Below are positions 31,944 to 34,687 of a DNA stretch of 64,000 nt, in pieces. Position 1 is the first letter of the stretch, and each line of letters begins with the position of its first letter. The stretch is taken from the NCBI GenBank assembly GCA_963514005.1, contig OY740808.1:1984001-2048000 (forward strand). Direction: 5' to 3'. Source of the DNA: Raja brachyura (taxonomy: Eukaryota). Under the pieces are notes generated by a model that worked only from the letters and a program-made list of their open reading frames with translations, searched no databases and was not told where the DNA came from. Both the position numbers and the translations under genes were made by a program.

Positions 31944-33613
31944 CATGAAAAAGCAGGAAATGGTAATTGTTGAGCTTCATTATACAGTCGTTATACTATT
32001 ACAGCTTCATTATACATTATACAGAGTTGAGCTTCATGTGATGATGTTAGTCAAAAGAGCCACTACACCCTTAACTCTGAGAAACTATTTGCCACTCATT
32101 TCCAGACACAATGCAAGCAGGAGAGAGTTTTCAGCATCAGGGTTGTCGGTAATAATAGAAGCAGTACAAAATTGGTCCTGCAGTCAAATGGACAAATTCC
32201 CCTTGTGTAGGTTCAAAGGATGTGGGGTAGAGAATCGTCATTGTGGTATGTATGTTCATTTAAGGATCATCATTTCTTAATCACAAAAATGCAAATCCCT
32301 TTCAGTACTTGGTAAATTTGATTTTTCTGCACTAAGAGATGCCGAGTCTACAACTGGTTTGAAATCAAAAGTGGTTTCATGGTTAATGAATGACTCATTC
32401 TGTGGAACTATGTCAGCAATTTAGTTGAAAGTGTTTTAATCTACAGACTCTGCAGCTGCAACAAATGGTGTCTGCTTCATGGGGTGACTTCTTGCAAGTT
32501 GTGGAAATAATGAAAAACTCCTCAATCAGGGCTGGGCCTCTTTAAATGTTTCCAAGTAATCCACCAACATGGAATGCTAAAAATACCTCTCCTTCCCTAA
32601 CCTTTCCAAGATGGCATAGGTACATTATGCTTTGGCTAGAAATTATTTCTGATTAGCTGAAATTCCTTGGATGTCCATGTTTGTAGACAACCTTTCTTCA
32701 TGCCAGGTTGTCCGACATGTGTAGACTCAAAACAGCTGAGGTGCAGCAATGGACCAAGATTGATGGAAGGTTGTTAACTATTAAACAAGTAAAAACCTTG
32801 GTGACTTACATGAAGGACTGCTCCCCGACTAACTTGGAAAGGAAAATATATACATCTAACAAAGAACCGTCCATTAAATTCAACAGATCTACATTAATGT
32901 GCATCCCATGAGGGTGACATTTGGCCTCAGCCAGATTCTGTGACTTTATACCTTCTTACTGCTTGTATTTAGCTAGCTTCTCCGTAAACAATTTATATCA
33001 TGAGTTTTTACATTTTAATTGCTTTAATTGCTGCTTGTGAATAGCTGTGTGAGAATATAGGAACATATTTTACAAGTTGTACTCTTTGGTAACAATTTTA
33101 CTTTTCAGTTTTCTCTCCAAGTGTGAATGATGATCACGCCTCATGTGGGTGGTTTAGCTGACATCAGCATATCTCCATTAGCATTCTGAAGAGGCCATTC
33201 ATTGTTTGTGAAGTTAGTGCCTTGGGCAACCTGGGAGAATGTGCAGAAAAGCTTCATCTTGCTGCTGACCAAACAGCTACATTTTTCAGTACATCAATGA
33301 ATAGAGTTATATACTTCTATTTAAACCATGTATACCCCCTTGCGATATTTGATTACATTTACAAAAACATATCTAAAATGTAATTATTGCATTTGTGATG
33401 CCAGTTTGGGGATTCCTGTCTTCCATTGCAAAAAGGCAAGCTAATATTAAGATTTTGCTTGAAAAATGAAAAATTCCTACTGCTGCTGAAACACTATCCA
33501 TCCATTCAATCAGTTGGGGAATTGATTGATCAAATGTTTGTTGGTCCATCCTTCACAAACCATATATGGTGCAGGATTCTGGAATCGATCCTCCAGTTGA
33601 GTGCATCATCTCT

Positions 33614-33746
33614 TCTTCTTCTTTCGGCGTGCACAGCCTAAAGTTGTGGGACAACTTGATCTATTTGATCTTCCGTTTGTGCACATCGAGTTGATTGCAT
33701 TAGTCGAAACAGGGCGGACCACGTGAAGGTTGCAATCTTCCACCCC
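33614..33746 (-). mobile_element. 133-nt short retroposon (ribozyme head, hairpin, (GAA)n tail) with 12-bp TSD
   Basis: TSD TG(C/T)ATCATCTCT at 33602-33613 and 33747-33758; (CTT)n at the left end is a (GAA)n 3' tail on the minus strand. Confidence 0.85.
33693..33746 (-). ncRNA. Predicted minimal HDV-like (CPEB3-type) self-cleaving ribozyme
   Basis: GGGGUGG-AA-GAUUGCA-ACC-UUCACGU-GGU-CCGCCCU-G-UUUCGA-C-UAA-UGCAAUC: P1 7 bp with G1.U, P2 7 bp, P3 3 bp, 7-nt L3, catalytic-position C followed by UAA. Confidence 0.85.
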
Positions 33747-34687
33747 TGTATCATCTCTGCCCTTGCTAATCTCCGATTCCCTGCAACCATTTCCCACCAA
33801 CTCAACTTCATTCACTATATATTAGCATTTTCCATGTAATCTTCAAGCCTGTTGCCATTCCGTGGTATCTAAAAAAGGCAGAACAGAATGGTCTTTAAAA
33901 ATGTAGGAGACTTCATTCATTCAGACAGATAATGTTATTGTTGTAACAACATTGCCGCTGGTCTTGAAGGCTGTTTTTCTTCTTCTCAAGTATAACTATT
34001 AAAATGCTGCAAAATATTCTGTGTTTACCAACGTGCTGTGAACTGAAAAGATGTTTCCCATTCACAAGAATATGAATAGCAATATTCAAGTTAAATATAA
34101 ATATTACCAGCAGTCATTAATTTCACTTGGCTTTGCAGCGTAGACAGTTTGGAGTCAATATACAAAATCCAGATGCCACACTAGCCACAAAAATACTTTC
34201 AAAGAAACTTTGTTTAGCATCCAAGTAGATTACTGTTATTTTCTACAAATGATCTTAAAAAAAAGTCTTATTCTTAACTTACAATTAATAATGTTGTAGT
34301 TTGCCTACGGAGCAATTTGATTGCATGAGTCCCACCCTTTATTAAGAGTAGCGGAAAAGCTGCAAAAAAAGCAAATTATTCCTTATTCAGGGAAGGAGAA
34401 ATGTCTATGTACATTCCACCTGGATCATGTCTCCTTTTGGGGTATTCACACAGCAGCATTGTGGATAACCTCGAGAAGTCATTAGCTGGAACCATTTTTG
34501 AAATGTGTGTTGGTGAATAGATTTATTGTTTACTGGTAAGTAGAAGAAATAGTACTTACTTTTTCTTTAGCAACAATGAACAAAAAAGCATTACATAGAT
34601 TCCTTGCCCGAACGAAACAATGGTAACTTAGTTCCTCGTTACTATGCTGCTAGTTTACCAGTCTCTTCTAGTGATGCTGTGCATTAA

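Follow-up and report, generated by a model that had tools for sequence, protein, structure and literature searches.

Within the 64,000-nt stretch of Raja brachyura DNA analysed here (the window), we found on the minus strand one copy of a non-coding element of 133-137 nt that was derived from the two ends of a Vingi-type LINE, carries a head predicted to self-cleave immediately before its first base (G1), and was likely copied in trans by the enzyme of that LINE (Table 1). The element combines a bipartite origin with a high copy number, target-site duplications (TSDs), 5' ends gathered at G1 and a double-pseudoknot fold that co-varies across related LINE families. A first-pass annotation of the locus had proposed a "ribozyme-SINE". 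The retroposon with an HDV-like head and 5' ends at G1 is borne out by our analysis, but the element is better described as an internally deleted LINE than as a new kind of SINE.

Table 1. Features of the element in the window (numbering of the forward strand, position 1 being the first letter of the window).
Feature	Position	Strand	Details
Whole element, non-autonomous Vingi-derived retroposon copy	33614..33746	minus	133 nt
HDV/CPEB3-like double pseudoknot without P4	33693..33746	minus	54 nt; predicted cleavage 5' of G33746; basis: fold, descriptor, Rfam, cross-family comparison
P1, 5' strand	33740..33746	minus	partner 33717-33711; G1.U wobble and one further U.G
P2, 5' strand	33731..33737	minus	partner 33699-33693; 7 Watson-Crick pairs
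P3 (ACC/GGU) and L3 (UUCACGU)	33718..33730	minus	P1.1 = C33725-G33710
J4/2	33700..33703	minus	predicted catalytic C = 33703
AUG	33700-33698	minus	first in-frame AUG of the parent LINE ORF
Remaining LINE-5'-derived part	33668..33692	minus	nt 55 to ~79; contains the 5' arm (33684-33678) of a 7-bp stem
Short linker	33655..33667	minus	absent from the LINE
LINE-3'-derived part	33614..33654	minus	last codons, TAG stop (33640-33638), 3' UTR with 3' stem arm (33635-33629), GAA tail
TSD copy adjoining G1	33747..33758	minus
TSD copy past the tail	33602..33613	minus	1 mismatch

All parts of the minus-strand sequence and fold that the first-pass annotation had laid out from position 33746 were located at their coordinates. 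Numbered from G33746, P1 comprises nt 1-7 and 30-36, P2 nt 10-16 and 48-54, P3 nt 17-19 and 27-29, and L3 nt 20-26, with C22-G37 accompanied by U21.U38, five bases in the place of P4 and C44 at the start of a 4-nt J4/2. The boundary at G1 drawn from a 12-bp TSD was reproduced, but its two copies are 11/12 identical rather than perfect repeats. Both hairpin arms (33678-33684 and 33629-33635) and the GAA tail are present in the window copy, which lacks 4 nt found before the tail in most copies, and its linker (33655..33667) resembles, and may represent, a local duplication of an A-rich CAAATAGA word. In agreement with the absence of tRNA A and B boxes reported earlier, a tRNA search of the element found nothing, and regular expressions for the A and B boxes had no match. 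A classical SINE (Pol III, with a tRNA, 5S or 7SL head) was consequently rejected as a candidate, there being no A/B boxes and the head being LINE-derived.

Just ahead of the tail, the sequence resembles an ORF terminus, and a genome search with a pattern modelled on such a terminus gave 282 matches. The last ~40 nt of the element were present at all 30 of the loci fetched, the longer of which translate to the C-terminus of a reverse transcriptase (RT). By walking upstream, we found a full-length LINE copy of 3.1 kb (L187) that starts with the head of the element, yields Exo_endo_phos_2 and RVT_1 pieces in Pfam, and is collinear with P0001, a 1,019-aa APE+RT protein with no RNase H entry. This LINE matches both the head and the tail of the element, as the first-pass annotation had anticipated of a mobilising partner. 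Its 11 homologues include APE+RT proteins of ~1,000 aa that also have no RNase H entry, one of them from Anolis. L187 is itself broken, and absence of RNase H is read from its collinearity with P0001; no intact parent ORF was detected among 45 scored LINE candidates, all of which were broken. Vingi LINEs are described as having a single ORF with APE and no RNase H (PMC13708176), and because the architecture fits this description we call the parent Vingi-type, an assignment made from architecture and motifs rather than from a tree. Of the RTE- or Ingi/Vingi-type mobilisers suggested earlier, the Vingi type is thus retained, whereas RTE is not; a 3.2-kb RTE-like family located by PF20049 was considered as the parent and rejected, as its ends do not match the element.

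Compared with the LINE, the element corresponds to nt 1 to ~80 and, after a short linker, to the last ~40 nt, and it has no ORF; judged by this comparison, it is an internally deleted LINE (a SIDE, or bipartite non-autonomous LINE). A pattern specific to the 5' UTR of the LINE retrieved 30 loci, comprising a second, cleaner deletion product (n = 23), forward LINEs (n = 3) and head-inverted LINEs (n = 4). In the 23 loci of this sister subfamily, LINE nt 1-96 are joined directly to the last ~40 nt. At least six P1 pairs are retained in a fixed register in 14 of the 30 heads of the clean-deletion set, and the first bases are often lost. We also observed a LINE copy (L286:1485 onward) whose reading frame, starting at the AUG in J4/2-P2 of its ribozyme, stays open into the endonuclease domain, and an eel (Synaphobranchus kaupii) protein, P0002, with 82% identity over part of the L187 ORF, which hints at a possible horizontal transfer of the LINE.

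In the genome searched (G000, 2.7 Gb), a 20-nt core of the element had 10,690 exact matches, a 23-mer motif from its 3' end had 9,237 and the full 54-nt ribozyme had 1,320, counts that include a tandem array; reversed-sequence controls for the motif counts gave 0. These figures establish the large family whose size the first-pass annotation had left to be checked, and ~20,000 copies may be roughly estimated after allowing ~4% divergence. An initial similarity search had returned 1,946 candidates (the top 40 at 95-100%), and the first 30 core matches were all the element, several of them interrupted. Two age groups were distinguished, a younger group of 38 copies with 94% pairwise identity and an older group of 31 copies with 89%, the window copy being closer to the former. 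The copies inserted independently at dispersed loci, where they are flanked by TSDs and vary in their tails. Two individual cases were also recorded: a single element copy amplified in a tandem array at ~7-27 kb spacing (G000:C1:14.79-14.95 Mb; L316-L321), with identical flanks in 6/6 fetched, and a copy with its own TSD inserted in the 5' part of the parent LINE (L186:1802-1934).

To avoid selecting for the head, loci were chosen by the 3' motif (the first 90 of 9,237). The head was reached in 74 of these (63 from nt 1), with a further 11 truncated, 1 inverted and 4 representing LINE ends. TSDs were called at 59 of the 74 head-reaching loci (15 without a call), of which 28 end exactly at G1, 10 one G further, 5 at 2-4 further and 16 at 1-6 nt earlier. 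The same position stood out in public contigs from four sequencing runs, in all of which 33746 was the maximum for loose contig ends; counts at 33746, 33745 and 33747 were 444, 61 and 92 (X3), 426, 64 and 83 (X4) and 442, 56 and 73 (X8), and run X1 gave 51 at 33746 and 9 at 33745, with 33747 not listed. The shared 5' end at G1 that had been predicted from the single window copy is therefore seen as a pile-up in both genome loci and sequencing runs. At the window locus, contigs of runs X3, X4 and X8 enter the element from both flanks, so the insertion is likely common to organisms B, C and D, and no joint skipping the element (an empty site) was present among the joints listed from the public contigs.

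Evidence for the fold was sought within the window, among copies and among families. An HDV descriptor, composed with the fold already known, matched this site and no other on either strand of the window, with 0 matches in 150 dinucleotide shuffles of it. The head displays the features expected of HDV-like ribozymes, namely nested P1 (7 pairs), P2, P3 (3 pairs) and P1.1, a C in J4/2, U20 and G25 in L3, and a paired G1. The Rfam model CPEB3_ribozyme aligned to it, but the score of 24.1 bits (E 1.3e-4, 161-nt scan) fell below the gathering score of 35; HDV-F-prausnitzii scored 16 bits versus a gathering score of 44, and was the only model to appear in a 1.4-kb scan (E 5.1). Membership of either Rfam family was rejected, both scores being under threshold. 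The L3 loop, likened in the first-pass annotation to that of CPEB3, is the same in the Rfam CPEB3 family consensus. The CPEB3 ribozyme (RF00622; PMC4836649), among whose features are G25.U20, a one-pair P1.1 with U.U and a 4-nt J4/2, further shares with the head its helix lengths, the numbering to nt 38 and the C-G of P1.1; the head differs from it in having no P4, in the sequence of P1-P3, in being mobile and multi-copy, and in its sub-threshold Rfam score. The predicted nested fold adds A8-U29 to P1 and gives up P3 in exchange; folding of the complete element was no better than that of its shuffles (z -0.99; nested folds, pseudoknots excluded).

Removal of two duplicate pairs from the 74 head-reaching loci left 72 copies, 34 of which retain all 17 pairs, P1.1 and the catalytic C. 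Taken singly, the C was kept in 67 copies, U20 in 70, G25 in 63 and G1 in 68. Departures from the majority were fewest at paired sites (3.8%), higher at unpaired sites (9.0%) and highest at downstream sites (14.0%), a difference for which subfamily sites 8 and 45 and a CpG are responsible. The covariation that the first-pass annotation had proposed to check was lacking at this level, with no two-sided (compensatory) pair changes among the 72 copies, but was found across the three Vingi-like families; conservation of pairs among the copies largely reflects their youth. The U.G of the element is a U-A in the parent LINE. The prediction for the 54-nt head is self-cleavage immediately 5' of G1. 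HDV-like ribozymes without P4 cleave in vitro (PMC10879173), and certain well-folded SIDER ribozymes are inactive in vitro (PMC4035085).

Two further Vingi-like families in the same genome, with ~37-42% protein identity to P0001, have the same head geometry written in different letters. Their heads are of full HDV-like size, measuring 89 nt in one (L330:658-746) and 85 nt in the other (5' ends of L329, L338 and L339). In L330, both sides are changed at 3/7 P1 and 3/7 P2 pairs and the P4 region spans 40 nt, and an Rfam scan of this head returned no ribozyme match. In L329, L338 and L339, P1, P2, one P3 pair and P1.1 (U-A) are all changed and the P4 region spans 36 nt; at L338 and L339 the TSD ends at G1. 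P4 has thus been lost in the family of the element and kept by its sister families, and the catalytic C, 4-nt J4/2, U20/G25 and P1.1 are preserved in all three. A fourth family yielded no 5' end. Such co-variation of P1, P2, P3 and P1.1 across families is stronger evidence of function than the comparison of copies. Separately, the RTE-like LINE (5' ends of L112, L113, L122 and L125) has an HDV-like head that begins with C and has a G-C P1.1 and a weak P2, its core resembling the Vingi head (GCAACCTTG-CGTGG at its 5' end).

We propose, as the most likely course of events, that a copy of the element is transcribed within a longer Pol II read-through transcript, from which the head would free the RNA by Mg-dependent cleavage 5' of G1, with C33703 as the putative catalytic base. 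The Vingi protein would then bind the LINE-derived 3' end and copy the RNA into a nick by target-primed reverse transcription, a step that we infer because of the TSDs, the tails and the shared ends. Within the RNA, the head may pair with the tail via a GTGCAC stem. An internal promoter, which the first-pass annotation took to be absent, would likewise give 5' ends at +1, and it is conceivable, if unlikely, that the 5' end of this Vingi-derived element is set by a Pol II promoter inside the head, with cleavage slow or a back-up; the main role of the pseudoknot would then be end protection, binding of the Vingi protein or translation initiation. Capped RNAs tend toward leaving an extra G, whereas of the 6 copies with one extra base before G1, only 1 has a G there (read by eye). 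The maintenance in all three Vingi-like families of the catalytic residues and P1.1 described above also argues against a promoter as the main function, whilst the position of the first in-frame AUG of the LINE in P2, the loss of P4 even though sister families keep it, and the precedent of Pr77 of L1Tc/NARTc, an Ingi-clade relative that acts as both promoter and ribozyme (PMC3383444), lend that function some support. The two explanations are not mutually exclusive.

Release by ribozyme cleavage and copying by the Vingi protein faces two weaker alternatives. An origin and mobilisation of the element through the genome's RTE LINE is very improbable; there is indeed an RTE-like family that ends in a GAA tail and resembles the element in its 5' core, but neither the P1 nor the 3' end of that LINE is homologous to the element and the Vingi LINE fits both ends, by which an RTE origin is largely refuted and occasional trans-mobilisation is what remains of it. 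It is scarcely credible that the fold is a chance pattern within an ordinary repeat, which the weak Rfam scores and lack of covariation among copies might suggest, given the empty shuffles, the placement of the fold exactly at the 5' boundary and its co-variation across families.

The parent LINE also showed a recurrent rearrangement of its head. An inverted piece was present at the 5' junction in 6 of 30 LINE 3' fragments, all six pieces coming from the first 106 nt, and 4 further head-inverted copies occurred among 25 loci chosen by RT sequence; nearly all inverted pieces trace to the 5' end of the 3.1-kb RNA. One TSD surrounds both pieces in 5/9 inverted copies checked by eye. Copies in which the ribozyme head is inverted relative to a truncated 3' piece were recorded at L131, L136, L138, L146, L148, L156, L163, L171, L177, L180, L287, L311 and L313, and one internal inversion at L204. 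Of the two arms of the hairpin noted in the first-pass annotation, one originates from the 5' end of the LINE and the other from its 3' end, which means that the head and tail of the LINE may pair. Pairing equally good was obtained in 2 and 49 of 500 shuffles for two parent copies, in 8-27/500 for a second family and in 93/500 for a third, and we regard head-tail pairing through the GTGCAC stem as a lead only. As a wider and tentative possibility, HDV-like ribozymes could be clade-wide in Vingi, with the P4-less 54-nt form at tens of thousands of sites, thousands of them able to cut sense host pre-mRNA; Vingi RNA held head-to-tail by the stem might make reverse transcription jump to or re-prime at the head, giving rise to head-inverted LINEs and to repeated births of ~135-nt elements that would define a minimal Vingi template.

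Self-release by an HDV-like head and the class of internally deleted LINEs are already known; what is new is the unusually small, abundant, Vingi-clade, P4-less form. Some LINEs and SINEs employ HDV-like ribozymes, according to a review (PMC6765202), and NARTc and RIME (L1Tc/Ingi), SIDER (PMC4035085) and R2 SIDEs (PMC3414825) are ribozyme-headed internally deleted LINEs. The element resembles these in its 5' ribozyme, parent LINE 3' end and absence of an ORF, as well as in trans mobilisation (putative for the element) and a cleavage site at +1 (predicted for the element), and differs from them in that its parent is a Vingi LINE, its host an animal whose genome measures 2.7 Gb, its insertion dispersed, its copy number >10,000, its length 133-137 nt and its ribozyme a 54-nt form without P4. 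Non-autonomous Vingi derivatives have been described (PMC5786205, PMC4494074), those of hedgehog Vingi-1_EE (cited in PMC5786205) likewise being internal deletion products of a Vingi LINE; the six-clade list of PMC5786205 section 23 credits Vingi with no ribozyme. Minimal (P4-less) HDV-like and theta ribozymes (PMC10879173) share with the head the absence of P4 and a compact double pseudoknot, but nearly 99% of them are from bacteriophage, in a search whose eukaryotic part covered human, mouse and protists, whereas the element's heads a retroposon. This family was not described in any of the matches listed from literature on Vingi, HDV-like ribozymes, cartilaginous fish and inversions; prior mention of a Vingi ribozyme or of this repeat may exist in Repbase, Dfam, patents or supplements, which lay outside that scope.

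If our reading is correct, Vingi joins the LINE clades with a 5' ribozyme, which has a bearing on a puzzle set out in section 23 of PMC5786205, namely that bipartite non-autonomous elements arise from RTE, Ingi, Vingi and R2 but from no other clade. The minimal HDV-like ribozyme, reported almost only from phages, would then have thousands of intact copies in the genome of an animal, and these would offer a natural mutational scan together with a direct test of selection against intronic sense-strand ribozymes. RNA-only gene insertion makes use of Vingi proteins, the template being flanked by both UTRs (PMC13708176), and the natural 135-nt element marks cis-sequences likely to be sufficient for such templates.

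The first-pass annotation had placed the element antisense to a host intron, which our searches of its surroundings did not confirm. A splice-site scan of the window gave no convincing exon, Pfam gave no match above cut-off on the 271 unmasked stop-free stretches of at least 48 aa in the window (125 plus, 146 minus), and no recognisable gene was evident within 100 kb on each side among the top 40 of 913 stretches, read by eye rather than with Pfam. A GC-rich stretch lies 56 kb downstream, from which no gene direction follows. As a proxy, T-A skew on the element strand was -0.021 (SE 0.012) across 56 loci, a small shift whose sign would be compatible with an antisense bias. Elsewhere, the window contains a CR1/L2-like ORF fragment with 108 homologues (60526-60933, plus strand) and three palindromic repeats resembling miniature inverted-repeat elements (36286-36445, 38502-38650 and 61898-62164).
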